Assembly (NCBI GenBank): GCA_965238005.1
Contig: OZ250165.1
Coordinates: 320,001 to 384,000, forward strand
From: Longimicrobiales bacterium
GTDB lineage: Bacteria > Gemmatimonadota > Gemmatimonadetes > Longimicrobiales > Gaopeijiaceae
DNA length: 64,000 nt
Direction: 5' to 3'
The stretch's first letter is position 1. Each line of letters begins with the position of its first letter. A model generated the notes under the pieces. It searched no databases. It was given only the letters and a program-made list of their open reading frames with translations, and was not told the origin of the DNA. Made by a program: the position numbers and the translations under genes. This document shows, piece by piece, positions 30,852-59,292 of the stretch.

Positions 30852-31427
30852 CGCGGGTTCGTCAGGCGGCGCCCCGGGCCGCCGCACCTCCTCGCGCTGG
30901 GCCTCCCTCATCGCGCGTATCTATGATGTCCTGCCGCTCGTCTGCCCGGGGCACCGCGCGAAGCGTGGTCGTGGTGCTTCGATGAGCATCATCGCCTTCA
31001 TTACGGATCCCGTTCCCGTTCGCTCCATTCTGTCCTATCTCGATCTCCCCACCCGATCCCCTCCACTGTCTCCCGCTCGGGCCCCGCGGGCACCACGCAA
31101 AGCGTGGTCGGGCATCTTCGAGTTCGATCAGACCGGCGGGTTCGACCCCGCCGATCCGGAACCCATTCCCGACCACGCTTCGCGCGCTGCCCTCCAGTTC
31201 GATCAGTCGCTACCCGACTGAGTGCACCCCTAAATGACTTTATCCCTCTGGTTTGAGGGTCCACCCCGCTCCATCCACCGCTGCCCATCCACGCATGCGC
31301 TCGTCTCGTCCTTGCATGGCCGGACGGCGAGCGTTCACCTTAGCCTGGGTCAGTTTTGCAAGGGGAGGGTCTCGCCCCGCTCAAGCAGGGTACCGCACTC
31401 GGAAAGGGTCCTTAGAATCCCTATCCT
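30852..31427 (+). mobile_element. IS91/ISCR-like remnant: transposase C-terminus plus ori-type end
   Basis: WASLIARIYDVLPLVCP..MSIIAFITDP..PPLSPARAP..FDQSLPD; end AGGGTCCTTAGAATCCCTATCCT. Confidence 0.8.
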
Positions 31428-31488
31428 TTATCCTTTCAGCCTGGTGGACCCGGACGGCTTCAAAATGACGATCTCTTCGGAAGGTTGA
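31428..31488 (+). pseudogene. VOC/glyoxalase C-terminal stub
   Basis: FSLVDPDGFKMTISSEG* begins at the element end. Confidence 0.55.
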
Positions 31489-31783
31489 GCGGGAAGCCTT
31501 CTGAACGTCCGAGATCGCGGAGCTGGGCGGAGGGATGTAGCCGTAGCCGGGTGCCGTGCGGGACACCGCCGACCTCAACTCTGCCTACCAGCCAGCCGAT
31601 ACGGGGACTATCTTTGTGCGGCTTTCTATGTTTACTGGAGAATTGCGAAAACCGGGGGGCTGCCCGGCGGGCTTGCTAGGGCCCGCGTCACGCGGGGGGG
31701 GGCGATTGTTCTCTTGAGCCATCCCGAGATTCGACCAGTTTCTGGGAGTTTGGGGTCCCGCTTGGGGTCCCAAAGCCCCTTTT

Positions 31784-32105
31784 CTATGGGCGGCCCCCTG
31801 GCCCTCCCACGCTGGCGGGCGAGGCGAGGCCGACGCGGTTCAAAGCGTCTGCGAAGCGTGGATCCTCGCGGATAGGATCCAACCTGGGGTCAACCTTCAA
31901 GAGCGGGAGACACCCCGCTCGATCCTCGAACGCTCGGTTGAGCCACTCGAAGGCGGCGTCCGGTTCGCCTAAAGTGACATGGGCGCCCGCGATTTCGTAC
32001 TTGCACATGTAAAGCCGCTCGGAAATCTCCTTCACCTTGGAGAGGAGCGCCCTGGCGTCGGACTCCCTGCCGGCCTCGGCAAGAGCCCATGCGAACCACG
32101 CCCCA
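31784..32105 (-). pseudogene. TPR-tail fragment typical of kinase/TolB-like signalling proteins
   Basis: LGEPDAAFEWLNRAFEDR..LKVDPRLDPIREDPRF. Confidence 0.7.
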
Positions 32106-32271
32106 CACCGCAGACCGCGAGCCAGGCGTAGAATCGCTTCCTTACGCAGCGGAGCCGGTGGGACTCGAGCCCACAAGCCGTTAGGACACCGGTTTTCGAA
32201 ACGGGTGAGCGCGTGCCCTGCGTTCGCCGAAGCCCCTGCAAGAGGTTTCGCTGATCGTTAGAAAATCTACT

Positions 32272-32658
32272 ATGGGAATCGTCGACTATTTTGAGCCAGA
32301 GCCGGACCTTGAATGCCCTCGATGTGGGCGGGTCTTGAGCGGATGGCAAGGGAAAGAAGCGGAAAACGCGCTATTTGTATGGAGACAAGGCGTTCGTCAC
32401 CCCACGACGCAACGTGTAGATGAAGATTGTCGTCTTCCGGAGGAAGAATTGACTCGATTTACGTTGCCGGAAGAGTTTACGATGGTGACACACTGCACCT
32501 GTAGCACGGAATTCCTATTAGACGCGGTGGGGACATCTATTGATGGCTTGTGGTCTCAGTCAACGCTGATGAAGCCGGATGAAATCGAAGAGATGTATAA
32601 GAATTGGCCTCGTGGTCGGCGTAAGGCTCTGCGCCAATGGTTGCTGGATAGGGTTTAG
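32272..32658 (+). CDS. Hypothetical protein (CxxC), lower GC
   Basis: Clean ORF, first of three closely spaced genes. Confidence 0.7.
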   Translation: MGIVDYFEPEPDLECPRCGRVLSGWQGKEAENALFVWRQGVRHPTTQRVDEDCRLPEEELTRFTLPEEFTMVTHCTCSTEFLLDAVGTSIDGLWSQSTLMKPDEIEEMYKNWPRGRRKALRQWLLDRV

Positions 32659-32678
32659 CAAGTTGTAAGACATCACAG

Positions 32679-33122
32679 ATGAAGTATTTCAGAAACCCCA
32701 AGCAAGCTGTTGATGCGATCAGCACTATGCTGTCGTCAGAAGCTTGGGAGAAGCTCAGCCGCTACTACGATCTTAGTGATACTGATATCGATCCGGCGAG
32801 CCTGATTTCCGGAGAATTCTTTGTCCGCAAAGAAAGACCTGAGGTGGCGCATCCCGCAGAGTTCTGGAGAATCAAGGAACCTTTTTCTCCGCAGTATGCC
32901 TACCAGTCGCACTACCATCGTTCAGATGAAATAGTCGACGTAACCGTACATATCGAAATTGATGAGGGGATGGGCATGATCCGGCGAGGCCTGCAAAGCT
33001 TCCAGCTTCGGAAATCCCCCGATGGCTATCAACTGTTGCCAAGCTCAGTTGCTCCACCGCCTCCTGATGAACCGCCGGAGTACGTTCAGCCGAGCGTGAA
33101 GCCGATTTGGGAGAAGGAATGA
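32679..33122 (+). CDS. Hypothetical protein
   Basis: Clean ORF, lower GC. Confidence 0.65.
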   Translation: MKYFRNPKQAVDAISTMLSSEAWEKLSRYYDLSDTDIDPASLISGEFFVRKERPEVAHPAEFWRIKEPFSPQYAYQSHYHRSDEIVDVTVHIEIDEGMGMIRRGLQSFQLRKSPDGYQLLPSSVAPPPPDEPPEYVQPSVKPIWEKE

Positions 33123-33436
33123 TCTGGATCGGGCTGGGCGTTGTCGCCGCCGGGTTGCTCTTTTGGCTTTGGACGATCGTGTCGTTCCTGGCCAATCCGG
33201 GTTACGGCGGCTTCGACATGTCGAGCGCTTCTGCGTTCGACCTTCAATGGAGCAAGGGAGCCGCCCTGGTGGCGATTGGCGTCGGCGTGACGACATCCTC
33301 GTGGCCCATCGGCGTCGCGTCTGGACTGGTAGCCTTCTTCTCCACGATGCTGGTAAAGCCGGTGATCCAGAGGCGGGTCCGGCACCAGATGTCCCGACCA
33401 ACCGAAGCTGAAACCCCGAGCGAGAAAAACCGATGA
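33119..33436 (+). CDS. Small membrane protein
   Basis: ATGA overlap with the previous gene; 2-3 hydrophobic helices. Confidence 0.6.
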   Translation: MIWIGLGVVAAGLLFWLWTIVSFLANPGYGGFDMSSASAFDLQWSKGAALVAIGVGVTTSSWPIGVASGLVAFFSTMLVKPVIQRRVRHQMSRPTEAETPSEKNR

Positions 33437-33488
33437 CGTCGGGGATCAGGCGGGAATGACAGACGTAACGCAGCTCTCGTCGCAGCTC

Positions 33489-34796
33489 CTACCGTGGTTC
33501 GAGCCTGTGAAGCTGCCCGTGACTCGCGACAAGGAGCTTGCCGTCCGATGTCAGGATCGGCGCGGTGGTCAGCGTGACGCCTTCGATGGTGGCCAGAATC
33601 CTGGCCGCGACCTCGCCGTCCTTCATCTCGTAGCTCGTGACCCGCGAGCCAGTGGTCACGAGAAGCTTGCCGTCGGCGGTGACGGCCGCGCCACCGATTT
33701 CGCCGCTCAGCTCGACTTCCCACGCGAAACGGCCCTCGGCGTCGAGGGCTCGAATCACCTGCTGCGAGACCAGGTACGGGCGGTGATCGTAACCGACGAC
33801 CGGCGGCATGACGAGGAGACCGTCGGCCCGCGACCATGGCAGGGTAGCGAGGCGTTCGCCCTGGGGTGAAAGCAGCCAATAGGCGAACTCGCCGTCGGGT
33901 TCGCTTACGAACAAGTGGATCCGTCCGGCCAGATCCACGCTGAGTTGCTCGGGGCGAGTGAACTCGGAGGTGATGACCGATGTCAGGTTCAGGTCGGCGT
34001 CGGCGAAGGCCACGGCGCCGGAAACGGCGATCACGAAACCGCCAGGCCGCTGAACGACCAAGAAGGAGCGCGAGTTGTGGGACAGGACCTGGAACTGGTC
34101 GTTCGTCCGGAGGATCCCGACGTCGTCGACCTTGGGTGGATCGCCGAAGGACCACACCTCCAATCCGCTGAACTCTCTCGGCTGCCCGCCGTGCGGGTCG
34201 AGCCGAGCTTCGATTCCTGCGGCGGCGAAATTTCCGTTCGGAAGGACCGACAGGTGCGTTCGGTCGAGATCGGAGAAGGTCAGCGTCGTCACGAAGGCGT
34301 CGCTGCCGTCGCGCATGTGGCGCGCGACGAACATGCTCGGGTTCCGACCCTCCTGGTAGAAGACCTCACCGTCGGGGTGGAGGAGGATGTCGCTCACAAG
34401 CGTCTGGCCGCCGGCAACGTGTGCGCCGTCTTTGGCGGCCACCACCTCCCACCATGTCTCCAGCTGGAGCAGAACCCGGTCGCCGGCTCGCTGGATGCTC
34501 ACCGGTGAGGCGTCCACCTCGAGCTGGCGGCTCCAGGCCACCTTCCAGACGTCGCCGGCGGGGAGCGACTGGGCCAGGTGTGACGTGTGTCCGGGACTCA
34601 ACCAGCGGCCGGAGACCACGCCGGTGGGGCTGGGCGTCGCGGCGGGCGGCGCCGGGGCCTGACCGGAGGCCATGGGTAACGTCGACACCGGGATCGGCAC
34701 ATTGAGGTCCATCCTGAAGAACTGCGGGATACTGTCCCCCCGAACCGTCTGAGAAACCACAGCCACGAGCGTGGCGAGGATGAATGTGTCGATCAT
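33489..34796 (-). CDS. Secreted beta-propeller (PQQ-like) protein
   Basis: Signal-like N-terminus; beta-rich repeats such as ALDAEGRFAWE and AVTADGKLLV. Confidence 0.65.
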   Translation of the reverse strand: MIDTFILATLVAVVSQTVRGDSIPQFFRMDLNVPIPVSTLPMASGQAPAPPAATPSPTGVVSGRWLSPGHTSHLAQSLPAGDVWKVAWSRQLEVDASPVSIQRAGDRVLLQLETWWEVVAAKDGAHVAGGQTLVSDILLHPDGEVFYQEGRNPSMFVARHMRDGSDAFVTTLTFSDLDRTHLSVLPNGNFAAAGIEARLDPHGGQPREFSGLEVWSFGDPPKVDDVGILRTNDQFQVLSHNSRSFLVVQRPGGFVIAVSGAVAFADADLNLTSVITSEFTRPEQLSVDLAGRIHLFVSEPDGEFAYWLLSPQGERLATLPWSRADGLLVMPPVVGYDHRPYLVSQQVIRALDAEGRFAWEVELSGEIGGAAVTADGKLLVTTGSRVTSYEMKDGEVAARILATIEGVTLTTAPILTSDGKLLVASHGQLHRLEPR

Positions 34797-34830
34797 TCCG
34801 GTTCCGATACCGAACAGGTTATAGATAAGG

Positions 34831-36282: not shown

Positions 36283-36305
36283 TTATGGACTAGTTCTGCA
36301 TCGTC

Positions 36306-36602
36306 CTATCCCTTCGGTATCTCACGCTGGATGAACCGAAACTCCTCGATGCCTCCCTGGGGATCGAAGCGGACGAGCTGCGATTGAAGAGCATCGGAAA
36401 TCTGGTGCTTTGTTTCCCTGTAGCTGATGTACATATAGCGAGGTCGCCGGTCGTGCGGGGTGCCTTCGATGTGGAATCCCCAGCGGTCGGCTCGTGGGAT
36501 CATGTGCACGATCTCTTGCACGTAGGCGATCGCATCGTCCTCCGTCAGGATCCGCAGGTCGAGCTGATCCTCAGGGGCCGCTGGTGTTTCCGCGGTCGCC
36601 AC
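36306..36602 (-). CDS. Hypothetical protein
   Basis: ORF with natural-looking composition. Confidence 0.45.
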   Translation of the reverse strand: MATAETPAAPEDQLDLRILTEDDAIAYVQEIVHMIPRADRWGFHIEGTPHDRRPRYMYISYRETKHQISDALQSQLVRFDPQGGIEEFRFIQREIPKG

Positions 36603-36614
36603 CGTATGACCGAT

Positions 36615-36782
36615 CCGTTAACGGCCCCTCTAAGCCACGAGGACACTCCAGCCTACCCGGGATACCGAATATAGCCCGAAGACGCTCAGAACGTGTTTGC
36701 AGGCGTCTGACGGGCTTCTGCTTGCGCCTCCAGGCCTGTAGATAGGATGTTGACCTCGGTCTGATCCCGGAGTGCGCCCATG
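36615..36782 (+). repeat. Leader repeat A, copy 1
   Basis: CCGTTAACGGCCC..ATACCGAAT..CGCTCAGAACG..GCGTCTGAC..TTGCGC..GGATGTTGAC..GGAGTGCGCCC-ATG. Confidence 0.9.
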
Positions 36783-36941
36783 TCTGATCCCGTCTCCCGC
36801 CTGAATGCAGCCCTGGAGGGTCGCTACTCGATCGAGCGTGAGCTGGGTGAGGGCGGAATGGCCACGGTCTACCTGGCGGATAAACTATTTAGCTCAAGAA
36901 AGAAACCCAGCGCCAAGAGGGTGGATCTCACCGATGGGTGA
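36780..36941 (+). pseudogene. Hanks-type Ser/Thr kinase N-terminal stub
   Basis: MSDPVSRLNAALEGRYSIERELGEGGMATVYLAD, then an unrelated tail and stop. Confidence 0.88.
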
Positions 36942-37833: not shown

Positions 37834-38059
37834 CTGCCGCAGCGCAGGTAGTCCTCTCGCCCCATGGCCTCGAAGGAGATTCAGCATAACGTCACGGGTG
37901 ATTCGCCTCCCGGCATGAGACCCACGAAGGGCAGAAGAAGGCCGGGCTCCCACACCGGTGCCTACGGGGCCCGCGCCCTTCGCTTGCGGTCGGCATCTTA
38001 GGCGCGCAGGAGGATCGCAGATCCTTTTGGCGTCTTCTTCACGTCACGCGGGTGTGGGT

Positions 38060-38653: not shown

Positions 38654-38691
38654 CGCCATCAGGTCCCCGGAATTCTGAGCGCACATGTCTC

Positions 38692-42053: not shown

Positions 42054-42359
42054 TTACCCAGATTCTTGCATGATCAACAGACTCGTGACTCTTCTGACCG
42101 TCTCACTAGAGAACGGCATCGGCAACTCCCCCAGCTCATCCGTCTCCACCTCGAACTCCTCATGCTCCTGCATCATGCGCAGGAGCCAATCGTGGGCTTC
42201 GCGAGCAGAGTGGATGCCATAGCGAGATGAGAGTCTGAAGCTCACCTCCGTAGGTGCCATGTAGCTGTCGGGATACTCGCACCGGATGGTCAGGCGGGGG
42301 GTGCGAGTCTGCGGCTGAGCTGAGCCAAATCCGAAGCTACCCCAGGAAAATATGCCCAT
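42054..42359 (-). CDS. Multicopy hypothetical protein (repeat B)
   Basis: Degenerate copies at 41147-41310 and 52294-52359. Confidence 0.55.
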   Translation of the reverse strand: MGIFSWGSFGFGSAQPQTRTPRLTIRCEYPDSYMAPTEVSFRLSSRYGIHSAREAHDWLLRMMQEHEEFEVETDELGELPMPFSSETVRRVTSLLIMQESG

Positions 42360-42788
42360 GCGTTCAAGCTATGGGTGATGATGAGGTTGGGCGATGGCTG
42401 GATGGGATGGACGCGAGGCCGCTAGTTCGGCAGTTTGCCGACGATCACCACGCCTTCCATGAAGACGCGAAGCCAGGGGATCTGACGGGTCAATTGGGCA
42501 CCAGCTGGCGAAGCTCCTCGAAGAAGTTCTGGACAGAAAGCCCCGAACGCCGCTGGGACGCTCATTCGTCTCCGCTTCACGTTCTACGGTGACGACGGAG
42601 AGTTGGGAGCGGAGGCCGTCACGGTTTCCGCCCCACCCTCGGAGGAGAGTGCCACGTTTGAGGTCTCGTTCGGGTCTCGAGCCACGGCCTATCGATACGA
42701 ACTGATCCCCTGATGTCGGATCTCCCCATGCCGCACGCCGCATGGGGACCGTGGACGGGCTGCTCGACGCCAGTCCTCTGATGGAGAG

Positions 42789-45525: not shown

Positions 45526-46117
45526 GGATAGGCCATTCAAAGGCCCTGGGCCGAGTTCAGCATCCTCCTCGGGCGAGCCGAGGCACCCCAAGGACATCCC
45601 CTTGCGAGGCCGTGCCCATGCCAAGGTGCATTCTCACCGTTCGCCCATCAAGGATGTGACGAGCGGATGCGTGGATGGGCAAGAGATGCCGAACGGATCC
45701 GACCCCGCGTCGGGGACGGCAGGTCCGTGGTGCGTCGGTCTATGTCTCAGTCGGGCAGCGACTGATCGAACTCGAGGGCACCGCGCGAAGCGTGGTCGGG
45801 AATGGGTTCCGGATCGGCGGGGTCGAACCCGCCGGTCTGATCGAACTCGAAGATGCCCGACCACGCTTTGCGTGGTGCCCGCGGCGCCCGAGCCGCAGAC
45901 AGTGGAGGGGATCGGGTGGGGAGATCGAGGTAGGACAGAATGGAGCGAACGGGAACGGGATCGGTGACGAAGGCGATGATGCTCATCGAAGCACCGCGAC
46001 CACGCTTCGCGCGGTGCCCCCAGGCAGACCAGCGGCAGGACATCGTAGATACGCGCGATGAGGGAGGCCCAGCGTGAGGACGTGCGGCGGCCCGGGGCGC
46101 CGCCTGACGAACCCGCG
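45526..46117 (-). mobile_element. IS91/ISCR-like remnant, close copy of 30852-31427
   Basis: Same C-terminus; end AGGGCCTTTGAATGGCCTATCC. Confidence 0.8.
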
Positions 46118-46551
46118 GCGGACTGAGCGCCGAGCTGCCCCGAGGGCGACGCCTCTACACCACCCTGCTCACGCCCGAGCGCGATGACCTGATACCTGAG
46201 CCTGGGACCCACCTTCGGTGGGTCTTGATTGGACGCCGCCTCCCGCTTCCCACACATCGCCATCGGTCTAACGTGGACTCTGCCCCTCACCCGAGCCCGG
46301 AGCTAACTGCCCCGGCCTCTCACGGCCCCATTTGGGGCCGCGGCAAGTTGTGTCGAACGCCCCGACCCTCCCTTGTTCACGTTCACCAACTTCCGGCGGC
46401 AAAGGCGAGACGGTTACCTTCGGGGGACACGCGAAAGAATTCGTCGGCCTTCTAGGCCCACGTTGAGGCGAGGGACGGGATCGGACATCGGTTCGAACGG
46501 CGATCCTATGACTGACCCTCTCACCTCTTACTTCTCACCTCTCACCGTCAG

Positions 46552-46620
46552 GGTGGCTGAGGGGACTTGAACCCCCAACCTCCGGAGCCACAGTCCGGCG
46601 CTCTAACCAGTTGAGCTACA
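46552..46620 (-). tRNA. tRNA-His(GTG) lacking its first ~6 nt (pseudo-tRNA)
   Basis: TAGCTCAACTGGTTAGAGC D arm, CCGGA-CTGTGGC-TCCGG anticodon arm, GGTTCAAGTCC T arm, CAGCCAC-C 3' strand; the 5' GGTGGC is replaced by TATCCT. Confidence 0.88.
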
Positions 46621-46643
46621 AGGATAGGCAGTCTAAAGACCCT
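46621..46643 (-). mobile_element. Solo IS91-like ori-type end
   Basis: AGGGTCTTTAGACTGCCTATCCT versus AGGGTCCTTAGAATCCCTATCCT at 31405. Confidence 0.7.
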
Positions 46644-46698: not shown

Positions 46699-47202
46699 TC
46701 AGCCTCTGCCCCCAAGTAGTTCCTGCGCCTCGTCCCCGGTAAGCCCCACTTCGGCCACTTCCGCGCTGGCGTCGGCCAATGACCGCTCCTCCGCCATTCT
46801 GGCCAGCATCAGTGAACCGGACGCTGAGACCGCGCCCAGGAAGGTCACAGCACCGACTATTGCGGCGGCCTCAACAACACTCGCCGCCCCCACAGCAACG
46901 AGGGCTGCCGGAAACAGACCCAGAAGGAGACCCCCGAGCGCCCCCCACGCCGCGAATCGGGGAAGCGACAACTCATCGAATCTGCGACGGCGCCCTGCAA
47001 TCCCGAGCACCGTGGAGAAGACCAAACCGCCTAGGAAGGCGGGGTACGCTAGCGCCGCCGGCCAGATATCAACGAGCGACCCAAGCGGATTCGGCCAGAC
47101 GTTGTGGATCACCTCTATACCGAACCCGACGAGCGCCCATCCGGCCGCCCAGGTCAGGCCCATCCCAACTGCTGCCCGGATGCGCGTCAGCCACTTCTTC
47201 AT
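46699..47202 (-). CDS. Four-helix membrane protein
   Basis: GGGAGG RBS; MKKWLTRIRAAVGMGLTWA..RRRFDELSLPRFAAWG. Confidence 0.75.
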   Translation of the reverse strand: MKKWLTRIRAAVGMGLTWAAGWALVGFGIEVIHNVWPNPLGSLVDIWPAALAYPAFLGGLVFSTVLGIAGRRRRFDELSLPRFAAWGALGGLLLGLFPAALVAVGAASVVEAAAIVGAVTFLGAVSASGSLMLARMAEERSLADASAEVAEVGLTGDEAQELLGGRG

Positions 47203-47224
47203 GACTACCTCCCCTCCCGCAAGC

Positions 47225-47730
47225 CTACCCCGCACCTAGGCTGCGCGATTCGTCGCCAGACTTCAGCGCAGGTCCTGCTCTTCGGGCGAGCATTAGGGTC
47301 GCTGTGGCCGATCCGCCACCCAAGAGTACGAAGATCGTCGCGTTGGCTAGGGCGGTCGAGACGGACCACGCCTGCCAGGCGTTTATGGCAAGAACCCCAA
47401 AGAGGAGAAGCCCGCCTCCAGCACCCAGCGCGGCGAAGCGGGGGAGCGAGAGCTTGCCGAACGGACGGCCGCGTGCTGTGATCGCCAGAAAACCAGAGAA
47501 GGCCACACCGAAACTCGGATCCGTAATGGTCAATCCTCCGAAGAAGCGGCCCCCGATGGTGTGCGCCCCGCTTATCATCCCCTGGGCTTCAAGTGCGGCC
47601 AGGGGTCGGCTGAACTCCTCGTAGAACTCGCGGGGGAACTCAAGGTGGGTCTTGTCCTCCGCCTTCAAGGCCGCATAGAGATGCCTCGACACCTCCTGCA
47701 CTTGAGGATCGAGGGTGCTAATCGGATCTT
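47225..47730 (-). pseudogene. Chimeric ORF: unrelated fragment fused to the C-half of a paralog of 46699-47202
   Basis: RPFGKLSLPRFAALG..LMLARRA matches the neighbour only below about 47510. Confidence 0.55.
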
Positions 47731-48406: not shown

Positions 48407-49116
48407 ATGGGGATCAGACGTGATCTGTTGTATGCAATCCGCTCATTGAGCCGAGCCCCTGCGTTCACCTTACCCGCGGTTGCTTCGCTGGCGCTAGGCA
48501 TCGCCATCAACACGACGATGTTCAGCGTGGTCAACTCCGTGCTCCTGAGGCCGCTAGGGTCGTTCGGCACCAGCGATCTGGTACGGATCGGCCGCTCCAC
48601 CGTGGGCGAGGAGCAATTCCGATCATCGTCCTACGACGAGTTTACATACCTGCGCGAGCACGCCTCGTCGCTCGCTAGCCTGGCGGGCCACCAGTTGGAG
48701 CCCCTCATCATGGACGGGCCCGACGATTCGCAAGTCGTGTCGGCCGAGATCGTGGCAGGTGATTATTTCTCGGTGCTGGGCGTTCCACCGATTCTAGGCC
48801 GCGGCTTCGTCGCTGAATACGGCGTCCCTGGTGAAGATCCCGTTGTGGTCATCAGCGATCGCTTTTGGCGCAGCCAATTTGGCGCAGATCCAGTGATCTC
48901 AGGGCGCACAGCGTCGCTCAACAACGTCCAGTTCACGATTGTTGGCGTAGGACCGCCCGGTTTTATCGGCACCTTTCCCGGCGTATCCGTCGATCTTTGG
49001 CTGCCTGTGTCGATGACGGATGCCCTCAGGCCTCGCGCGAATCGTCGCGTATCTATGGACCTAATAGGTCATCTGAAGGAGGGCGTCTGAATCGCGACGG
49101 CTCGGGCCGAACTAGA
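48407..49116 (+). pseudogene. MacB/ADOP-type ABC permease, 5' fragment
   Basis: RDLLYAIRSLSRAPAFT..LALGIAINTTMFSVVN; GHLKEGV*IATARAELE ends at the element end. Confidence 0.85.
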
Positions 49117-49139
49117 GATAGGCCATTCAAAGGCCCTGG
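49117..49139 (-). mobile_element. Solo IS91-like ori-type end
   Basis: GATAGGCCATTCAAAGGCCCTGG, identical to 45527-45549. Confidence 0.75.
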
Positions 49140-49231: not shown

Positions 49232-50722
49232 CTAGCGGGAGCCCTCGCCCCAGGGAAGAAGGGAGCGAAATGAGAAGGTTGGCCGCACGCCCACTTTGAC
49301 GGTCGCAATCACCCTGTTCGTCGCGACCTCGATCACCGACAGATCGTTGGAGCCCGAGTTCGCCACGTAGGCGAAGGCTCCGTTCGGCGTTATGGCCACG
49401 TCGATCGGGCTCATGCCTACGGCGACGGTGCTCAGTACACGGTTTGTGGCCGTCTCGATGACGGTCACCGAGTCGGCGAACTGATCCGTCACGTAGACGT
49501 GGGAGCCGTCCGGGGTGACGGCGACTCCACTAGGATAGGAGCCCACGTGGACTCTGCCGACCACGCTCCGGCTCTGGGTCGAGATTACGGAGACCGTGTT
49601 GGAGCCGCGATTCGCCACGTAGGCGAAAGCCCCGTCCGGTGTGAAGGCAACGCCGAGGGGCCTGCGCCCGACTCGAATCGTATCGATCACGGAGTTCGTC
49701 GCCGTCTCGATCACTGACACCCCGCACCTCCCGAACCACGTCCCCGGTGTGCAACTACCGAAGAAGTCCGTGACGTAGACAAAGGCCCCGTCAGGTGAGA
49801 TGGCCACCTCCTCAGTCGGGGAGCCGACGCGGATCGTGGCGACGATGGCGTTTCCGGCCGTCCCGATCACCGAGACGGAGTCGGAGGCTACGTAGACGAA
49901 TGCGCCGTCCGGCGTGACGGCGACTCCACGAGGATCGGAGCTCACGCGCACCTTCCCCACCACGCGCTTCGTCGCGGTTTCTATCACCGAGACCGTGTTG
50001 GCGCTCCAGTTCGCCGCGTAAGCGAAGGCGCCATCCGGCGTGATAGCGACTCCACGAGGATCGGAGCCCACGCGCACCGTCCCCACCACGCGGTGGGTCG
50101 CCGTCTCGATCACCGAGACGGAGTGAGACCGTGTATCTCCGGCGTAGACAAACGAGCCGTCCGGCGCGATCGCGACGCCTTCGGGCCCGGTACGGTATTC
50201 CGAGTCCCCGTCATCGCTGCAAGATTGTCTGGGGTCGCCCGCCTCGGGACGGGAGCCGGGCGGACCATCCGCACCGAACGAGCACGTCTGCGTGATCGCG
50301 CGGTGGGCGACGGTGGCGTGCCAGCCCCGGGCATCCGCGCAATCGATCTCGATCGTCATTCTGCCCTCGCTCTCTAGATCGGGGTCAGGCAGCAGCCGCG
50401 CGAGAGTGTCGAGGTTGGTCGTGTAGACATCGTGCTCGGAGAAATAGAGCGACTCGGCGACGGCCACCTGACGGAGCGTGGAGCGCATCACGCTTCTGTA
50501 GGCACGCTGCCTCCCATCGTAGCCGGGACGCATGTTGATGACCACCACGAGCATCAAGGCGACCAGCAGGATAGTCGTTACCGCAGCGACCTTGATGATT
50601 CGACGCACCGCCCGCCATCGAGACACTCGACTACCTCGCCCTTGTTCGCGTCGCGCGGGGCATCGGCGTTCTTGTGGTTTCCATAGGTACGTCACTCCAA
50701 AATCGATGGCGCGTGTCGACAC
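49232..50722 (-). CDS. Pilin-like N-terminal domain fused to a YVTN/YncE beta-propeller (start uncertain)
   Basis: TM helix, AYRSVMRSTLRQVAVAESLYF..Y; seven PxxVAxxPxG..YV..VSVI repeats. Confidence 0.8.
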   Translation of the reverse strand: MSTRAIDFGVTYLWKPQERRCPARREQGRGSRVSRWRAVRRIIKVAAVTTILLVALMLVVVINMRPGYDGRQRAYRSVMRSTLRQVAVAESLYFSEHDVYTTNLDTLARLLPDPDLESEGRMTIEIDCADARGWHATVAHRAITQTCSFGADGPPGSRPEAGDPRQSCSDDGDSEYRTGPEGVAIAPDGSFVYAGDTRSHSVSVIETATHRVVGTVRVGSDPRGVAITPDGAFAYAANWSANTVSVIETATKRVVGKVRVSSDPRGVAVTPDGAFVYVASDSVSVIGTAGNAIVATIRVGSPTEEVAISPDGAFVYVTDFFGSCTPGTWFGRCGVSVIETATNSVIDTIRVGRRPLGVAFTPDGAFAYVANRGSNTVSVISTQSRSVVGRVHVGSYPSGVAVTPDGSHVYVTDQFADSVTVIETATNRVLSTVAVGMSPIDVAITPNGAFAYVANSGSNDLSVIEVATNRVIATVKVGVRPTFSFRSLLPWGEGSR

Positions 50723-50781
50723 TACAACGATTCACCCTTCATGCCTTGGCGGACAAGCCAGAACTCGTCCGGGAGGTGGCC

Positions 50782-51435: not shown

Positions 51436-51731
51436 ATGTGCTCAAGTCTGAAAAGGCCCAGCCAGATGCCCGCCCCGCAGCGGAGCCTCCGCTGTGAAAG
51501 TCCTCGCACACCCGTGAGACACGCCCCGGAGATCAGCAGATCGATAACTACACGGCCGAGCTGCATACTCGAGCGCCACCTCTCCCGCAGCGACAAGTTC
51601 ATGAATATACGCTGAGATCTAAATGACTGTCCTGCATTAACTTACGGCGCAACACAGGCTGTATATAATGGTTGTTATGTTAAGCTGCTGACCCCGGAAC
51701 CTTCCACCAGAAGCTCGAGCGCGGGCAAACC

Positions 51732-52190: not shown

Positions 52191-52360
52191 GCCGGCTCAG
52201 TCCCCGCCGCTATGCTGCTGCATTATGTCAAGTAGACGCCTTGCAGAGTGGTGGATCTTGCATCATTAACCAGGTCACGAAACCGTCACTTTCCTGACCC
52301 TCTCACCACAATCAGCATCGGCAACCTTCACGGCTGATCCGTTCCCATCTCGAACTCCTT

Positions 52361-55300
52361 CTAGCGCCGTCGTGGCGCGGGCGGTACGATGGGTGGCACG
52401 CGGCCTGGCCAGAGGTTCCGGTCCATGAGCTCGGAATAGAGGGACGGTAGCTCAGTCTCCAGAAGCCCGTTCAACTCTTGGACGGTCTCCGTCGCGTCCT
52501 CGAACAGCCAATCGATCTGCCGGAGCTGATCGGGCCGCGGCGGGCCGGATGGCCAACGTTCGAGGTAGCCTTTGAGCCCCTGCCAGCCCGTGACGGCACT
52601 CATCACTTGCCGAACATCCCCCTGGAGGTCCGAGAGCCTTTCGGCCAACTCCTCTACGCGGCTCTGGATCTCTTCGCTGGCGGCCTCGCCTCCACGGCCA
52701 GCCTCGTCGGCAAGTTGCTTCTTGAGCCCCTCGATCTGGTCGGAGAGGGGGTTCACTACCTTCTGGGCGGCATCCAGGGTCTTCAGGATCTCATGAAGGT
52801 CCAGCTGGGCAGCCTGGCGTGCCTGCCGATCCGCGTCCGAAACGTGGATCAAGGGATCTGCTTCCACCGTTATCTGGCCCGTGAGCCGGGCTAGGCCGGC
52901 AGCACTCTCATCCCTGTTCACCGCTGCGCCTCGCGGGACATTGACTGCCACCCGGTAGCTTCCAGGCAGGACGTTGGGACCTCGGGGCCCGGGATCACCG
53001 GCGTAAAGAAACGCTCCAGGCTCGTAGGCTGGCTCCATGCGGAGGTCCCAGAACACCCGATTCAGCCCCCGCTCGCCCGGCCCCTCCAGGGTGCGGATCA
53101 CCCTCCCCCCGGCGTCGCTGATGACAACCTCCACGTCACCTTGGGATGACTCACCGAGGTAGTAGGTGATGCCAGCTCCGTACTCCGGGTTGGGCGCCAG
53201 GAACTGGCCGTTGCCGAACCAAACCTCGGGGTCGTAGGTGTAGAGGAGCCGGGCCGTCGGGACGGGCAGGAGGTGCTCCCGGGCCGCCAACACCTCAGAC
53301 GTCAGGGCCTCCAGGGGTCCGATATCGTCCAGGATCCAGATACCCCGCCCATGGGTCCCCACGATCAGGTCGTTGTCCCGAGGGTGGATGATCAGATCAT
53401 CCACAGGGACCGAAGGCATGTTGCCGTTCAGAGAGGCCCACGTGGCTCCCCCGTCAATGGACACATGCACCCCCTTCTCGTGCCCCACGAAGAGGAGCCG
53501 GGGGTTCCTCGGATGCTCCTGAATGATGTTGACCGTCGTCTCCTCCGGCAGACCCCGGGCCAGCGCCCGCCACCTCTGGCCGTAGTCCTCGCTCACGTAG
53601 ACGTAGGGCCGGTAGTCGTCGTTGAAGTGCCCGTCGAAGGTGGCGTACACCCGGCCTTGGGCATGGTGGGAGGCCACCACCCTGCTCACAAAGGTTGTGG
53701 GGGGGAGGTCGGGGATCCGATCGGTGACGTTCGTCCAGTCGGCCCCGCCGTCCCGGGTGACGTGCACCTGCCCGTCGTCGCTCCCCGTGTAAAGAACATC
53801 CGGATTCAGGGGCGACTCGCCGATCGTCGTGAGGGTGGGGTAGGACGCGCTCCCGGTGACCCAGCGGCCCTTCATCTCCAGCGTATCCCGGTCCACCCCC
53901 ATGGTCAGGTCCGCACTGATCACCTCCCAGTGCCGCCCCCGATCGCTTGACCGGAAGACCACCTGCGCTCCGAAGTAGATGGTCGCCGGATCGTGGCTCG
54001 ACATGACCACCGGCGAGTTAAAGCCCCAGCGGTGGACTCTCTCCTCTTCCCCTTCCTCGTTCTTCACAGGCTTTTCCGCCGGAGCCGGGTTGATCGCCTG
54101 GCGCTCCCCGGTGGTGAGATGTAAGCGGTTGAGCCGCCCACCCTGGGACTCACTGAAAACAATGGTGTGGTCGTTGGGGTCGATCAGTGTGTAGAAGCCG
54201 TCACCCGGCCCGACCTTGGAGACATCGTGATTGGAGATGCCATCTTCGCTGCGGGTGGCGCTGGGCACGCACCAGGAGCCGTAGTCCATGCTGCCTCCGC
54301 AGACCCAGTACGGATCCCGCATGTCCACACCGATCTGGTAGAACTGGCCGATGGCCAGGTTGTCCTTGAACAACCAGTTCTCGCCCCGGTCCCAGGAGAT
54401 CGATACCCCAGCGTCGCCGACGAGAATCATGTGGTTGGAGTCGTCTGGATCGATCCAGAGGTCGTGGTGGTCAGGGTGGACTCCGATCGCCACCGGGGCA
54501 TCGTCGCGGAAGGTCTTGCCACCATCGTCCGAGACGTGAACGCGGAGGCCGAGCAGGTAGACACGGTCAGGGTCGTCGGGGGCGACGCGGATCTGGCTAT
54601 ACGAGGGTCTGGGGTTGAGCGTGTTGACGTGTTCCCAGCTGTCGCCCCGGTCGAGGCTCCGGAAGATGCCCCCCCTCGGCGCAATCGCCTCTACCACTGC
54701 GTAGATGATCCGCCCGTCTCGCCGGTAGATGTCCAGGCTGATCCGCCCCTTGTCCCCCTCCGGGAGTCCTCCCGTCAGCTCGGTCCAGCTCTCTCCCCCG
54801 TCGTGCGTCCGGTAGAGGCCGCTCCCGGGGCCACTACCGCTGAACCCCCACGCCCGCCGCCGCCGCTGGTACATGGTCGCGAAGACCGTCTCCGGGTCGT
54901 GGGGATCCATGGCCAGGTCGACCGCCCCGGTGTGCTCATCCACGTAGAGCACCCTCTCCCACGTCTCCCCCCCATCGTTGGTCTTGAAGACTCCCCGCTC
55001 CGGGTTCGAACCCCATAGATGCCCCACCCCCGCCACGTACACGACATCCGGGTTCGTCGGATGGATCACGATCCGGCCTACGTGCCGCGTCTCCTTCAGC
55101 CCCATGTGGCTCCAGCTCCGGCCGCCGTCCACCGACTTGTAGACGCCCTCGCCCCAAGTCCCGGTCCGGTAGCTGTTCGGCTCGCCCGTGCCTACCCACA
55201 CCAGGTTCGGGTTCGAGGGGGCCACCGCCACACGGCCGATCCCGATCATCCCCTCCACGGAATCGAAGACCGGATCCCAGGTGGTGCCCTGGTTCGTGGA

Positions 55301-55612
55301 TTTGAAGAGCCCTCCGATAGCAGTGCCCAGGTAGATGACGTCCGGGGCACCCGGCACCTTGGCGACTTCAATATCAGCGATTCGCCCCCCCATGGTTGCC
55401 GGACCCACGCTGCGCCACTTCAGGCCCGACAGGGCACCGCCAGCCGCCGCATCGTCCATGCTCTGTCCAGCCACTTCGGCGAGGTCTGGACCGCTGGGTA
55501 TCCCAACCAGAAGCAGAATAAGGGTGAGGCAAGAACTCCCGGTACGCATGAGTACTCCTCCCTGCTTTCCTACGTTAACAACAACGCCCCCGCTATCCGA
55601 TGGATCGGACAC
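52361..55612 (-). CDS. VPS10/BNR-repeat glycosyl-hydrolase-like secreted protein (native start probably 55549)
   Basis: WRSVGPATMGGRI, many SxDGGxxW repeats, GTHGRGIWILDDI. Confidence 0.9.
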   Translation of the reverse strand: MSDPSDSGGVVVNVGKQGGVLMRTGSSCLTLILLLVGIPSGPDLAEVAGQSMDDAAAGGALSGLKWRSVGPATMGGRIADIEVAKVPGAPDVIYLGTAIGGLFKSTNQGTTWDPVFDSVEGMIGIGRVAVAPSNPNLVWVGTGEPNSYRTGTWGEGVYKSVDGGRSWSHMGLKETRHVGRIVIHPTNPDVVYVAGVGHLWGSNPERGVFKTNDGGETWERVLYVDEHTGAVDLAMDPHDPETVFATMYQRRRRAWGFSGSGPGSGLYRTHDGGESWTELTGGLPEGDKGRISLDIYRRDGRIIYAVVEAIAPRGGIFRSLDRGDSWEHVNTLNPRPSYSQIRVAPDDPDRVYLLGLRVHVSDDGGKTFRDDAPVAIGVHPDHHDLWIDPDDSNHMILVGDAGVSISWDRGENWLFKDNLAIGQFYQIGVDMRDPYWVCGGSMDYGSWCVPSATRSEDGISNHDVSKVGPGDGFYTLIDPNDHTIVFSESQGGRLNRLHLTTGERQAINPAPAEKPVKNEEGEEERVHRWGFNSPVVMSSHDPATIYFGAQVVFRSSDRGRHWEVISADLTMGVDRDTLEMKGRWVTGSASYPTLTTIGESPLNPDVLYTGSDDGQVHVTRDGGADWTNVTDRIPDLPPTTFVSRVVASHHAQGRVYATFDGHFNDDYRPYVYVSEDYGQRWRALARGLPEETTVNIIQEHPRNPRLLFVGHEKGVHVSIDGGATWASLNGNMPSVPVDDLIIHPRDNDLIVGTHGRGIWILDDIGPLEALTSEVLAAREHLLPVPTARLLYTYDPEVWFGNGQFLAPNPEYGAGITYYLGESSQGDVEVVISDAGGRVIRTLEGPGERGLNRVFWDLRMEPAYEPGAFLYAGDPGPRGPNVLPGSYRVAVNVPRGAAVNRDESAAGLARLTGQITVEADPLIHVSDADRQARQAAQLDLHEILKTLDAAQKVVNPLSDQIEGLKKQLADEAGRGGEAASEEIQSRVEELAERLSDLQGDVRQVMSAVTGWQGLKGYLERWPSGPPRPDQLRQIDWLFEDATETVQELNGLLETELPSLYSELMDRNLWPGRVPPIVPPAPRRR

Positions 55613-55850
55613 GGGCGCACTCCAGGATCAGACTGTCAACATCCGTTACACGGGCTAGGTGGCGCAAGGAGAACACCTGTCAGACGCTTGTATTCGCGTT
55701 CTGAGCGTATTCGGGCTTTATTCGGTATCCAGGGTAGGCTGGAGTGTCAGCGTGGCTTAGAGGGCCGTGAACGGCTTGCTGATCTGTGGGCGACTACAGC
55801 AGTACCAACGGCAGTCCCAGCGCGAACAGCCCCGACACTATGATCACGCT
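55610..55850 (-). repeat. Leader repeat A, copy 4, with upstream gene tail
   Basis: Reverse complement aligns with 36615-36790, including the MSDP start, in frame with the VPS10 gene. Confidence 0.9.
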
Positions 55851-55884
55851 CACGAAGCCCATCGAGCGGAAAGGCTGGCGCTCA

Positions 55885-56510
55885 ACGTCGGTGACGTGGC
55901 GTTTGAGCAGACCGTGGCAGTGGAAGTAACGGAGCACGCGGTGTCGAATCGTGTGCTGGAGTTCGCCCCAGTCGGAGGCCGTGAGATGGGTGGCCTCGTG
56001 GAATTGGACCGAGCCCTAGGGATCCTCGCTGAACATGCCGTCGATGACACAAACATGGAAATGGAAGTGCGCGTTCAAAGATGAGCCGAACCTATGAAGG
56101 AACGAGATGGCGCCTATCTGGGCACCGGGACCGGCTCCCGGGCTCGCCTGTCGGAGCGTGGTCCGAAGGGCGCGCAGAAAGATGCGCAGCACAGCGCCGG
56201 CGATGGCGGGGTTGTGGTGAAGGAAGGGCCGGAGGCGCTTCGGAACGGAGAGCACCCATTGCCGCACCGGAAGCGGCGGCAGGACATGGTCGACGAGATG
56301 GGCGGCGCTCTCGACCATAGGGCGCGCATTACACGACGGACATGCTCCCCGGCTCCCGCATGAGAACGCCACCAGAAAGTCCTAGCCACAACCGGCACAC
56401 CGGGCTCGTGCGAATCCATGAGCGAGAATGCCACAACGCAGATAGGCCCGGAAGTCGCGCTCGACCCATGCGGGGACGCCGCCCCCCATGGGGTCCGCCT
56501 CGGCGGCCTC
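55885..56510 (-). pseudogene. IS91-family (Y2/HUH) transposase N-terminal half with stops
   Basis: YLRCGILAHGFARARC..VAFSC..CPSC, RQWVLSVP, LNAHFHFH. Confidence 0.9.
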
Positions 56511-56799
56511 TGTAATGATGCGCGGGCGTGTCAGATCAGTATCCCGACCTTAGAGTTGACCGAGTAGCGGGGCCACCGCGCGGCTTCTAGGACGGCGAGC
56601 GTATCGAAGTGCTCGGCGACAACCCTGAGTAGCCGCCGTGGTACCCTGATTGTCTGACCGCGCAGCCCGTCGGGAGAAATTGCCGCCGTGCGGGCTTGCC
56701 GTATCGGTCCCCGACTGGCTAGTCTGCCTCCCTTCAGCAGGACGCTCGACGATACCAACCCCAACCTGTGACGTGCATCGTGAGCGCGGAGGCTCGAGC

Positions 56800-58329
56800 A
56801 TGAGAGTGCGTATACCTGGCCCGTGGACCCCGGCGGTGTGGATTCTGACCATCTTGAGCACGCTCGCTGTGGTGTTCTCGAGCTCGGCCGAGGCGCAGTG
56901 GGTGCAGAGTCCACCGGATCAGGACGTGGTGATCCGCGGCGGCTGGCTCTTCGACGGGATCCGGGACACGAGGGTCCGTAACACGGGCATCGTGATCCGG
57001 AATGGGGTGTTCGCGGAGGTGGGCGCCGACCCGGCGAGCGTCTCGACGGCCGGCGCGCGCGTGATCGATCTGGACGACGACATGACGATCCTGCCGGGGA
57101 TGGTCGACCTGCACGCGCACTTGAACATGAACCTCGTAGGCGAGGGACGGGCCGAGGAGGTTACGTACAACCCGATCCTCTTCCTGGCGAACGGGGTGAC
57201 GTCGACGTGGTCGGGTGGTGAGTTCATCCCCCATCGGGTGATCGAGGCGCGGGACCGCATCGACCGGGGCGAGGCGGTCGGGTCGCGGCTGTTCGCTTCG
57301 GGGCCGTACTTCGGGGCGTTCCGCTGCGAGTACAACATCGAGAAGGCAGAGGACGAGTGCCCGGGTTGGCCGAACGGGATCTCGGAGCGACAGATCCGGG
57401 CCGAGGTGGACTACTGGGCGGACCGGGGGGTGAGGAGCATCAAGATCAAGCAGTCGACGCCGGAGGAGATGCGGATCCTGATCGATCAGGCTCACCAGCG
57501 GGGGATGACGACGACGAGCCACCTCAGCAACTACGCGCGTGGCTACGATGTGGGCGTGAAGGAAGCGATCCGCATGGGCCTCGACCGCGTCGAGCACGGG
57601 ATCACGGAGGGCAGGGGCGGCGGTCCGTCCGAGGTAAGCGAGATGATCGACATGTTTCTCGCCTACGACGTCTTCTTCGACCCCAACCTCCAGATGTCGG
57701 GCCGCAACGAGTTACGTAGCATACCGGAGCTCGAGATGGTGTGGGTCGACGAGATCAAGTTCTTCACCCCCTACGTCCGGCGCCTCATCCGCGAGCGGAG
57801 AAGCGCCTTGGCCGAGGACCCTGCGCCGCCGTTGTCGGACGGGAATCTTCGTAGAATGGTCGCACTGAAGGCGCTGTACGAGGCCGGAGGCGGTCACCTG
57901 ATTCTGGTCGGCACCGACGAGCCGACGAGTGGCTGCACTCCCGACTACAAGTCGCCCGTGGACGCGTGCGGTCCGTTGTTGCCTGGATTCGCCTACCATC
58001 GCGAGCTCCAGGCTCTCGTGTACGCCGGGCTGCCGCCGGTGGCGGCGCTGCAGGCGGCGACGATCAACGGCGCGCGCGCGCTGGGCGTTGAGAACCAACT
58101 CGGCACGATCGAGCCCGGTAAGCTCGCGGACCTCTCCATCGTCGAGGGCAACCCGCTCGAGGACATCAAGATGGCCCGCGAAGTCCGTTACGTCCTGAAG
58201 AACGGCGAGGTGTACGATCCACAGGCCCTGCTCACTTCGGCCGAGGGCAAGATCGGACCGTCGGGCCCGGACGACCACGACTACTGGACGCTACGCGTCG
58301 AGCCACTGGTACGAGTGCCACTGTCGTAG
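56800..58329 (+). CDS. Secreted amidohydrolase-family protein
   Basis: PGMVDLHAH, VEHG, VGTD, GTIEPGKLADL. Confidence 0.9.
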   Translation: MRVRIPGPWTPAVWILTILSTLAVVFSSSAEAQWVQSPPDQDVVIRGGWLFDGIRDTRVRNTGIVIRNGVFAEVGADPASVSTAGARVIDLDDDMTILPGMVDLHAHLNMNLVGEGRAEEVTYNPILFLANGVTSTWSGGEFIPHRVIEARDRIDRGEAVGSRLFASGPYFGAFRCEYNIEKAEDECPGWPNGISERQIRAEVDYWADRGVRSIKIKQSTPEEMRILIDQAHQRGMTTTSHLSNYARGYDVGVKEAIRMGLDRVEHGITEGRGGGPSEVSEMIDMFLAYDVFFDPNLQMSGRNELRSIPELEMVWVDEIKFFTPYVRRLIRERRSALAEDPAPPLSDGNLRRMVALKALYEAGGGHLILVGTDEPTSGCTPDYKSPVDACGPLLPGFAYHRELQALVYAGLPPVAALQAATINGARALGVENQLGTIEPGKLADLSIVEGNPLEDIKMAREVRYVLKNGEVYDPQALLTSAEGKIGPSGPDDHDYWTLRVEPLVRVPLS

Positions 58330-58363
58330 GAGTCTTCGGCGAGCGCAGCCGACCAAGCAGTCA

Positions 58364-58578
58364 TCGGAGATCCCGCCTATGACGCGACGCAGCACCTGTT
58401 CAACTGTGCGGACAGATTGCGCTCGGACCCGGACAGTACGATACGGCATTTCGCAGACCTGCTCGGTGTGGACCATGAGCGCGTTCGACTGTGGACCTTC
58501 GCTCGTGGGGTTGCCGGACCGTGGGACGATTGGATGGACGACGGCTGGGTAACGTTCGCGAGAGCGATGGCGCCTTAG
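58364..58578 (+). pseudogene. APH(6)/StrB-like phosphotransferase C-terminal stub
   Basis: IGDPAYDATQHLFNC..ADLLGVDHERVRLWTFAR. Confidence 0.65.
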
Positions 58579-58615
58579 GGCGTTCGGCTTGCATCTCGCG
58601 AAGCGCAAGGACATC

Positions 58616-58706
58616 GTGCCTTTTGGACGGTTCACTAGGTGGACTCGGCATGTGGGAGATGCTCCTGATCTTCGCTGTGGTCCTCCTTCTCTTTTCGGCG
58701 AAGCGA
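58616..58706 (+). pseudogene. tatA: TatA N-terminal stub
   Basis: GGLGMWEMLLIFAVVLLLFSAKR. Confidence 0.7.
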
Positions 58707-58792
58707 CAACCGCCGACAGGCTACTGGTAGAGACGGCCACCCCCATCGTTCGGAGGTCGCCGCCTTCTGGTTCAGGGGGGTTGGCGGTCATC

Positions 58793-58921
58793 GCTGACCC
58801 CGAACCCAACAGTGCCAGAAACAGTGACAAACCCCCCGGTTGCTGGCGGTTGCTGACGGTCGAAGGAAAACCGAAAGCCTAGTGAAATGGCGGGTTTCTG
58901 TTGCCCACGGTTGGTCGTCCG
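58793..58921 (-). repeat. Repeat D, copy 2
   Basis: Reverse complement aligns with 41875-42000. Confidence 0.8.
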
Positions 58922-58932
58922 CCCAGACTCCA

Positions 58933-59292
58933 GCGTTCGATCCCTCCGAGGCTGAGCCTGTGCCCGACTTCGTGTTCGGCGTTCGATCCCTCCGAGGCTG
59001 AGCCTGTGCCCGACTTCGTGTTCGACCAGTCCTTGCCCGACGAGTTCGCAGACTGACGGCCCGCCCTAGCGCAAAGATCGCTCTCCGCCACGATCACGAG
59101 TTCTCCTGACTCCTGCCGCCCATCCACGCATCCCGGCGTCTCATCCGCGTATCGGAGTCTCCACGGCCGCCCGTTCCATCCGATCACGCTTCGGTGTGCC
59201 CTTACCCTGAGTCCTCCCTCCAACTGGACCATCCATCACTGCACGCCATACCTTGGCTCTTGGACCAATTGGGCGGTTGGATCTCCTATCCT
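58933..59292 (+). mobile_element. IS91-like remnant with a 46-bp tandem duplication and ori-type end
   Basis: FDPSEAEPVPDFVFDQSLPD; shared CCCATCCACGCAT motif; end GGGCGGTTGGATCTCCTATCCT. Confidence 0.75.

Follow-up and report, generated by a model that had tools for sequence, protein, structure and literature searches.

We analysed a stretch of 64,000 nucleotides from the genome of a Longimicrobiales bacterium (Gemmatimonadota, Gaopeijiaceae; GenBank assembly GCA_965238005.1, contig OZ250165.1, positions 320,001 to 384,000 of the forward strand), which is called the window below and lies within one 4.84-Mb contig. Several genes of this window are broken beside putative ends of an insertion sequence (IS) of the IS91 family, close in its features to the ISCR elements. 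A preliminary description of the same DNA had pointed to five copies of a short motif as rolling-circle ends of IS91/ISCR type, and had suggested that such ends moved in trans and carried gene fragments along in a Helitron-like manner. According to our analysis the ISCR/IS91 termini, the lack of an intact transposase and the broken genes at four of the five sites all stand, while the Helitron-like cargo capture is not supported.

Five termini and the broken genes beside them

Table 1. Features of the window connected with the ISCR-like termini; the position of the last C of CCTATC and the position weight matrix (PWM) score are given for the five sites
Feature	Position in window	Strand	Last C of CCTATC	PWM score (bits)	Basis
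Site 1, ISCR-like 3' fragment: about the last 95 transposase codons (frame damage) and a 204-bp tail to ...CCTATC	30847..31425	+	31425	29.0	tblastn, aa 415-502
Site-1 flank on the target side: the final 17 codons of a VOC/glyoxalase-type gene and part of the downstream spacer	31441..31626	+			translation ...FSLVDPDGFKMTISSEG*
Site 2, ISCR-like 3' fragment: transposase aa ~371-504 in two frames and a 220-bp tail to ...CCTATC	45527..46191	-	45527	32.3	tblastn; left edge 46191
tRNA-His(GTG) without about the first 5 nt of the acceptor stem, directly adjoining site 3	46552..46622	-			sequence reading
Site 3, solo 21-nt oriIS terminus, no other element sequence	46623..46643	-	46623	29.1	anchored alignment ends after 21 nt
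ADOP-family duplicated permease, first ~225 residues (whole ~800 aa), heading to site 4	48413..49090	+			NCBIfam TIGR03434, 2-225 of 803, E 7.5e-60; Pfam MacB_PCD
Site 4, solo 23-nt oriIS terminus	49117..49139	-	49117	27.9	23/23 identical to site-2 terminus
N-terminal half (aa 51-261) of an ISCR-like transposase, stop-broken, without a terminus of its own	55887..56519	-			tblastn, 68% over 211 aa; Pfam Y2_Tnp and Zn_Tnp_IS91; NCBIfam ISCR_clade_Ia, E 4.9e-32
Site 5: last ~37 transposase codons (small tandem duplication) and a 234-bp tail to ...CCTATC	58943..59290	+	59290	28.6	tblastn, aa 472-508; translation
DUF5916/CBM9-type gene, first ~100 codons, downstream of a tricorn protease gene	59292..59600	-			translation ...IDGVLDEPFWQ...RIAYDERAIY*

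All five copies of the motif were located where the preliminary description had placed them, and they align without gaps as one 22-mer (Table 1). The literal pattern by which they had been described matches three of the five sites and misses those at 45527 and 49117, through its written spacing only. The genome was scanned with a profile, as had been proposed in that description. The PWM was trained on 25 ends (11 from this genome, 14 from relatives) in which homology continues for at least about 48 nt, and the solo sites at 46623 and 49117 were kept out of the training set; hits were taken at 18 bits or more, and the null was the same genome reversed and not complemented. The window sites score 27.9-32.3 bits, and the whole genome contains 29 matches against none in the null, 18 of the 29 lying outside the training set. 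A strict IUPAC form of the motif occurs 12 times in this genome and zero to four times in each of 60 related genomes, 12 of which are positive, and its backwards controls are zero throughout. The motif is therefore real and far above chance, and its outer edge is identical across all copies of the terminus.

The earlier statement that four of the five ends lie at truncated genes was borne out, since the VOC, tRNA-His, ADOP permease and DUF5916 stubs adjoin termini, and the missing halves of these genes are not found in the neighbourhood. The frame of the permease stub runs into a stop at 49088-49090, 27 nt before the site-4 terminus; FtsX domains give 28 matches in the genome, none of them in or near the window. 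The frame of the DUF5916 stub stops at the site-5 junction, and its full-length relatives have 685-950 aa. The name of this stub rests on similarity to paralogues (40-48% identity); Pfam gives no match on the stub itself, and the five DUF5916 matches of the genome are all outside it; a search for its orthologue in 40 relatives returned only multi-copy paralogues at no more than 62%. ARAGORN calls no tRNA at the position of the shortened tRNA-His, and two other tRNA-His genes exist elsewhere in the genome; the broken one is a third, divergent copy. One of the two others belongs to a tRNA cluster at genome positions 1036477-1036700, together with a tRNA-Ile with the anticodon AAT.

The two solo sites, 3 and 4, lie about 55 and 90 bp past unrelated open reading frames (ORFs), 46699-47235(-) and 49232-50731(-), just as they had been described, and at both of them the gene with its terminal hairpin occupies the place where the transposase would be expected. 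On the inner side of site 3 the homology of the 178-aa gene to the same-genus genome G001 and to a paralogue ends 0-4 nt from the motif, just past a conserved hairpin. The fragment of site 1 is 83% identical to that of site 2 over about 590 bp, and its left edge at 30847 was set by comparison with a copy at 4.69 Mb of the genome. Inside this remnant, at window 30949-30971, there is also a GC-rich palindromic word of 23-24 nt with about 40 identical copies in the genome, on both strands. The last 147 bp of site 5 recur with 97% identity at genome position 389298.

Relation to ISCR elements and the IS91 family

The DNA upstream of sites 1, 2 and 5 encodes the frame-damaged C-terminus of an IS91-type transposase (...IIAFITDP...FDQSLPD*), and the distance from its stop to the terminus is 204, 220 and 234 bp, respectively, in agreement with the 200-235 bp estimated before. 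An intact transposase with the same end, which the preliminary description had named as a thing to look for, is present in a related genome of the Longimicrobiales (G016; Gemmatimonadota), where a protein of 508 aa ends in ...PDFVFDQS... and is followed about 237 bp further on by ...GGGCGTTTGAAATACCTTC. Seven further Gemmatimonadota loci have the same tail, spacing and terminus; one of these (L026) aligns to residues 16-507 of the intact protein but is interrupted, its longest ORF being 337 aa.

By tblastn the 508-aa transposase is 53.6% identical to a transposase of a Thiodictyon plasmid, 36% to that of ISVsa3, which we take to be ISCR2, and 32.5% to that of ISCR1. The top PWM match after the transposase stop is found at 219 bp in the Thiodictyon plasmid, at 232 bp in ISVsa3 and at 229 bp in ISCR1, and the terminal word, as the best matrix match in each, reads GCGGTTGGATTTCCTATCC, AGGGCGTTTATTCTTCCTATAC and AGGTGGTTTATACTTCCTATAC, respectively. 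In published work the oriIS region of ISCR1 is described as 232 bp long (PMC6218425), with which our 229 bp agree. In the NCBIfam collection the protein matches ISCR_clade_Ia with E 4.9e-86 (289 bits, below the curated cut-off of 925) and the IS91 equivalog with E 1.1e-30 (106.8 bits, below the cut-off of 125). Homology to Zn_Tnp_IS91 and Y2_Tnp is also found in the window itself, at 56016-56381(-) (PF04986, E 1.6e-8; PF14319, E 3.1e-7).

Given that the same terminal word recurs at a similar distance from the transposase stop in the intact relative, in ISCR1 and in ISVsa3, the five motifs are, judged by these sequence comparisons, the oriIS-side termini (right-hand, distal to tnpA) of an ISCR-like branch within the IS91 family, which is what had been suggested for them earlier. 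The branch shares with ISCR1 and ISVsa3 a transposase some 500 aa long that contains Zn_Tnp_IS91 and Y2_Tnp parts, ISCR_clade_Ia being the best NCBIfam model here, as well as an oriIS region, non-coding and about 205-240 bp long, which follows the stop and ends in AGG.(N)GTTT....CCTAT(A/C)C; frequent truncation of copies is another common feature. It differs from them in a protein identity of only 32-36% and in scores far under the curated family cut-offs, in a terminus reading CCTATC(C) and not CCTATAC, in a host that belongs to the environmental Gemmatimonadota, with resistance genes not involved, and in the reduction of the lineage to fragments in this genome. With IS91 and IS1294, as they are described in PMC13181058, it has in common two dissimilar ends with practically no inverted repeats, and it may also share subterminal palindromes, which are predicted, and an oriIS beside a target tetranucleotide with T at position 2. 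Unlike IS91, it has a transposase about 100 aa longer and no orf121 was seen, and its score with the IS91 equivalog remains under the cut-off. Hairpins are predicted in most of the oriIS ends, and the consensus fold is weak, with -1.3 for nine family-A ends and none for ten family-B ends.

Parts of the element and its junctions in the genome

As the preliminary description had it for the window, no intact IS91-type transposase was found, and this holds for the whole genome, where Pfam Y2_Tnp gives four partial matches and tblastn 23 pieces, the longest of them being the N-terminal half listed in Table 1. Along the 508-aa reference these pieces amount to about 2-3x coverage at residues 26-425 and to 5-8x at residues 426-500. 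The left-terminal region, defined by two copies starting CAGCCGATCG..., exists in three copies (3050915, 3508097, 3544789), and a terIS left end is found on no copy of the window. The right termini, about 29 in number, thus exceed the rest of the element about tenfold. An attempt to define the left end from distant relatives failed, DNA similarity to them being lacking. Twelve of the 29 termini are gathered within 288-458 kb (170 kb, or 3.5% of the genome); neighbouring termini have the same orientation in seven pairs and the opposite one in three, which is indistinguishable from chance.

Anchored alignment was applied to 32 ends, i.e. the 29 and three slightly degenerate ones. The retained length is 18-40 nt in nine of them (18-25 nt in seven, 30 in one and 28-40 in another), 42-77 nt in four (one extends to 91 with a different reference), 75-96 nt in three, 132-169 nt in seven, and longer in the remaining nine. 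We had considered discrete classes of retained length and dropped them, since the shortest group stands at the detection floor and the group at about 150 nt reflects the limit of sequence conservation. In one subfamily the right ends form a nested, near-identical series of about 665 nt (site 2), 139 nt (2681328), 48-62 nt (3031826) and 23 nt (site 4). ORFs of at least 60 aa at the outer junctions of the 32 ends number 38, and 28 of them, from 19 non-window ends, were compared with Pfam, those left out being seven at window ends and three at non-window ends (297705, 3188904, 2681328). A family match was obtained for three of the 28, all apparently whole genes starting downstream, in a check that would miss all four window cases too.

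The two same-genus genomes, G001 and G002, contain termini (two in one and four in the other by the strict pattern), and neither has a Y2_Tnp match at E of 0.001 or less; no intact copy of the lineage was found in the three genomes of the genus searched. In G001 (locus L019, 5918-6290; contig C3, about 185.9-186.3 kb) two ISCR-like right-end fragments stand in opposite orientation, one of them having entered the other within its C-terminal tail; about the last 29 nt are missing from the resident fragment.

Two other repeats accompany the remnants. An interspersed repeat of about 100-300 bp, possibly MITE or REP-like, is present in dozens of copies of 70-95% identity here and in both same-genus genomes; its window members are at 36577-36880, 42093-42533, 55601-55899 and 63356-63418, and copies of it adjoin IS91 end fragments at genome positions 2681328 and 1665408. 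A partly palindromic module of 48-75 nt (...GTACGTATCTTTATATCGTGGGTATACGTAC...) is seen at window 30130-30177, upstream of a DUF6364/PIN toxin-antitoxin pair at 30039-30826, and also about 60-110 nt within the ISCR-like left end; it recurs about 32 times in the genome with 82-96% identity and resembles either a promoter/operator cassette used in common or a very small mobile element.

The precision of the junctions against empty alleles had been proposed as a check, and an empty allele is available for site 1 only, as the region is scattered in both G001 and G002. In G002 there is a whole VOC-type gene, 99% identical to the site-1 stub over 72 bp, which reads ...GAGCCTTCAGCC... where the window has CCTATC-CTTTATCCTT-TCAGCC. 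By this comparison the site-1 break is placed at CTTC, as far as a 7-nt tandem repeat, which blurs it, allows; the place was thus obtained, but not to the base. The VOC 3' region is present a second time in the genome, at 1.2467 Mb; judged by eye, this resident copy is about 96% like the stub region along some 150 nt, and in a three-way alignment the stub is nearer to the G002 gene than to this copy. Relative to G002, the spacer between VOC and tRNA-Ala carries a 99-bp insertion at 31508-31606. The copy at 1.2467 Mb has a shorter version of this insertion in the same spot, and its tRNA-Ala is seemingly cut after the anticodon.

Of the 29 termini, 23 have T as the second base after CCTATCC, and this bias resembles the conserved T at position 2 reported for IS91 targets (PMC13181058). 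No copy has both ends, which would be needed to read a target duplication. Logan contigs span the junctions of site 2 (runs X20 and X21), site 3 (X24) and site 4 (X19, X20 and X21); the bridging runs come from three studies, and since one run may be the source sample of the assembly they are not necessarily independent. The junctions of sites 2, 3 and 4 are hence not assembly chimeras, a possibility which had been raised for all the junctions. Another contig of X20, 4883 bp long, matches window 46280-46620 with one mismatch and diverges exactly at the junction of tRNA-His and site 3; it may be an alternative or empty allele. One X20 contig skips 126 bp in the beta-propeller gene (window 49982-50109), which would be an in-frame variant in repeat number.

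On the side of site 5, the homology of G001 beside the tricorn gene ends at window 59772, at an IS, and has no bearing on this site. Next to the same gene in G001 stands an inverted pair (L017, 7560-8790 and 10940-12171) of an IS-like repeat of about 1232 bp that is found in the window at 25106-26337; it is this repeat that terminates the homology at 59772. The Sortilin/BNR gene of the window (52354-55594) has three counterparts of 93-95% identity in G001, of which one lies, as in the window, about 6 kb away from the tricorn gene.

Origin of the right-end excess

We propose, with a probability of roughly 0.7, that the window contains worn oriIS-side ends of a formerly active ISCR-like branch of the IS91 family, which broke several genes at their insertion, and that many of the copies have consisted of a right end only. 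The elements would have been inserted with the oriIS end beside a tetranucleotide, thereby disrupting the genes for VOC, tRNA-His, permease and DUF5916. The many copies with a right end only may be products of rolling-circle events that were one-ended or stopped too early, the junction at oriIS being the one that would be made first and precisely; alternatively, they may have been cut back afterwards by deletion, insertion of other IS or recombination, and the same later events would also have removed what is missing of the broken genes. Both the excess of right termini, which is roughly tenfold, and the nested series of right ends point to a polar process, whether insertion of the right end only or failure of the second junction, acting on top of ordinary decay. 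As no transposase is present now, any movement would be historical.

Such a process would be in line with what is reported for the family. Transposition of IS91-type elements starts at oriIS, which must adjoin its tetranucleotide, and runs to terIS, where the stop fails in 1-14% of events; IS91 requires only the last 82 bp of its right end and the adjacent tetranucleotide (all from PMC13181058). For IS801, insertions of 229, 360 and 679 nt of the right end only were obtained in 26% of events (PMC3189936). The right-end miniatures of IS801 in Pseudomonas syringae are the closest precedent in behaviour, being scattered right-end-only pieces with a precise oriIS terminus beside unrelated genes, for which one-ended transposition is a documented source (PMC3189936). 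Those pieces start at a tetranucleotide resembling that of the left end and coexist with an active IS801, according to the same source; here there is no rule for the left edge and no transposase left, many pieces have about 20-50 nt, and the right ends far outnumber the other parts.

Several observations weigh against our proposal. There is now no transposase which could act in trans, and none was matched in the two same-genus genomes. Nine of the 32 ends keep 40 nt or less, far below the 82 bp of IS91; these could not move alone, and the model leaves their origin unexplained. The left edges of the truncated copies, placed for a handful only (sites 1-4 and the copies at 389298, 3031826, 931019 and 4695442), show no consistent ter-like tetranucleotide, and the site-1 junction has about 8-9 extra bases, with its 7-nt tandem repeat. 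The excess of termini could partly reflect that this is the best-conserved and most detectable DNA of the element, though the search at the protein level, directed to the conserved catalytic part, should have biased the result in the opposite direction. Finally, Bardaji et al. (2011) ascribed most genomic IS801 fragments to reorganisation and not to one-ended transposition (PMC3189936).

This last conclusion speaks at the same time for pure decay, by which every terminus was once part of a full-length insertion, the truncations, solo pieces and missing halves came from later events, and no transposition of right ends alone took place. The genome would offer the means for it, with many active-looking IS and repeats, among them a 1342-bp IS in at least 10 near-identical copies and the repeat of about 250 bp in dozens of copies, some of which adjoin IS91 fragments; internal and N-terminal transposase fragments without termini are present as well, and the region is not collinear with the same-genus genomes. 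Decay alone does not predict some 29 right termini against about three left-terminal regions and a 2-3x coverage of the body, nor the nested near-identical series of right ends (about 665, 139, 48-62 and 23 nt), and we consider it rather unlikely as the whole explanation. The proposal that the ends were mobilised in trans with adjacent host DNA, so that the stubs would represent cargo and captured fragments would be stacked in the region, has a basis in the one-ended transposition with flanking DNA established for IS91, IS1294 and IS801 (PMC13181058, PMC3189936), and the second VOC 3' region at 1.2467 Mb, about 96% alike, might be taken in its favour. Within 3.6 kb, sites 4, 3 and 2 also follow each other head-to-tail on the same strand, separated by gene fragments, and both solo sites have the layout of gene, hairpin and 21-nt terminus, for which we keep a small probability for capture and judge it improbable on the whole. 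All four stubs are outside the oriIS terminus, on the target side, and in the IS91 model the mobilised DNA is on the terIS side (PMC13181058, PMC3189936). When the 3 kb on the inner side of 14 termini, those of sites 3, 4 and 5 included, were compared by BLAST, no unit of terminus plus neighbour was found repeated in the genome. A close parent copy is lacking for the permease and DUF5916 stubs, paralogues reaching only 40-48%, and the VOC stub, nearer to the gene of G002 than to the resident copy and 99% identical to the former, reads as a broken orthologous locus. At 21-23 nt, a terminus is well short of every functional oriIS known, and in the two same-genus genomes termini are present yet Y2_Tnp is not matched. 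We had also considered the segment between sites 3 and 2 as an inserted tandem unit and rejected this, as the sequence of G001 beside the shared membrane-protein gene does not match that beyond site 2.

The neighbouring stubs would thus be broken targets, with a role as cargo not demonstrated, and the earlier model of non-autonomous ends with their cargo gives way to this view. Eukaryotic Helitrons likewise transpose by an HUH rolling-circle mechanism and capture gene fragments through read-through of an end, but their captured fragments are inside multi-copy elements and have parent genes (PMC4778049), neither of which is shown here. It is very improbable, lastly, that the motif is not transposon-derived and represents a recurring regulatory or recombination site, or that the junctions are artefacts of assembly. 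Two of the five sites are without flanking element sequence, as this would have it; however, the same word closes IS91/ISCR tails in Gemmatimonadota, in the Thiodictyon plasmid, in ISVsa3 and in ISCR1, the reversed controls are zero, and contigs of three studies bridge sites 2-4.

Returning to the worn ISCR-like ends, a bolder reading would see in them a natural record of insertion that begins with oriIS, with the second junction often failing and target DNA being lost, in which termini of about 21 nt serve as reusable points of cleavage or insertion and so stack fragments, as in sites 4-3-2. We give it little chance; if true, it would be a bacterial counterpart to the 5'-truncated insertions of LINE elements and close to a Helitron-style shuffling of fragments. 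The relic ends as they stand are fairly ordinary genomic debris and not demonstrated gene capture, and the element is an environmental member of the ISCR/IS91 group, present in this genome as relics only, with no new mechanism shown.

The significance of these relics is rather in what they record. As of 2018, according to one paper, no experiment had demonstrated the transposition of an ISCR element (PMC6218425). The present genome supplies an in-silico footprint of how such elements inserted, made up of about 29 natural oriIS junctions, a single empty allele and the preference in the flanking bases, and it comes from an environmental phylum, far from the clinical settings in which ISCR are studied. 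For genome annotation, the relic termini explain a patch of pseudogenes, and the word of 21-23 nt can be used to flag old breakpoints. The tenfold excess of right ends, in its turn, bears on how frequently rolling-circle transposition terminates prematurely.

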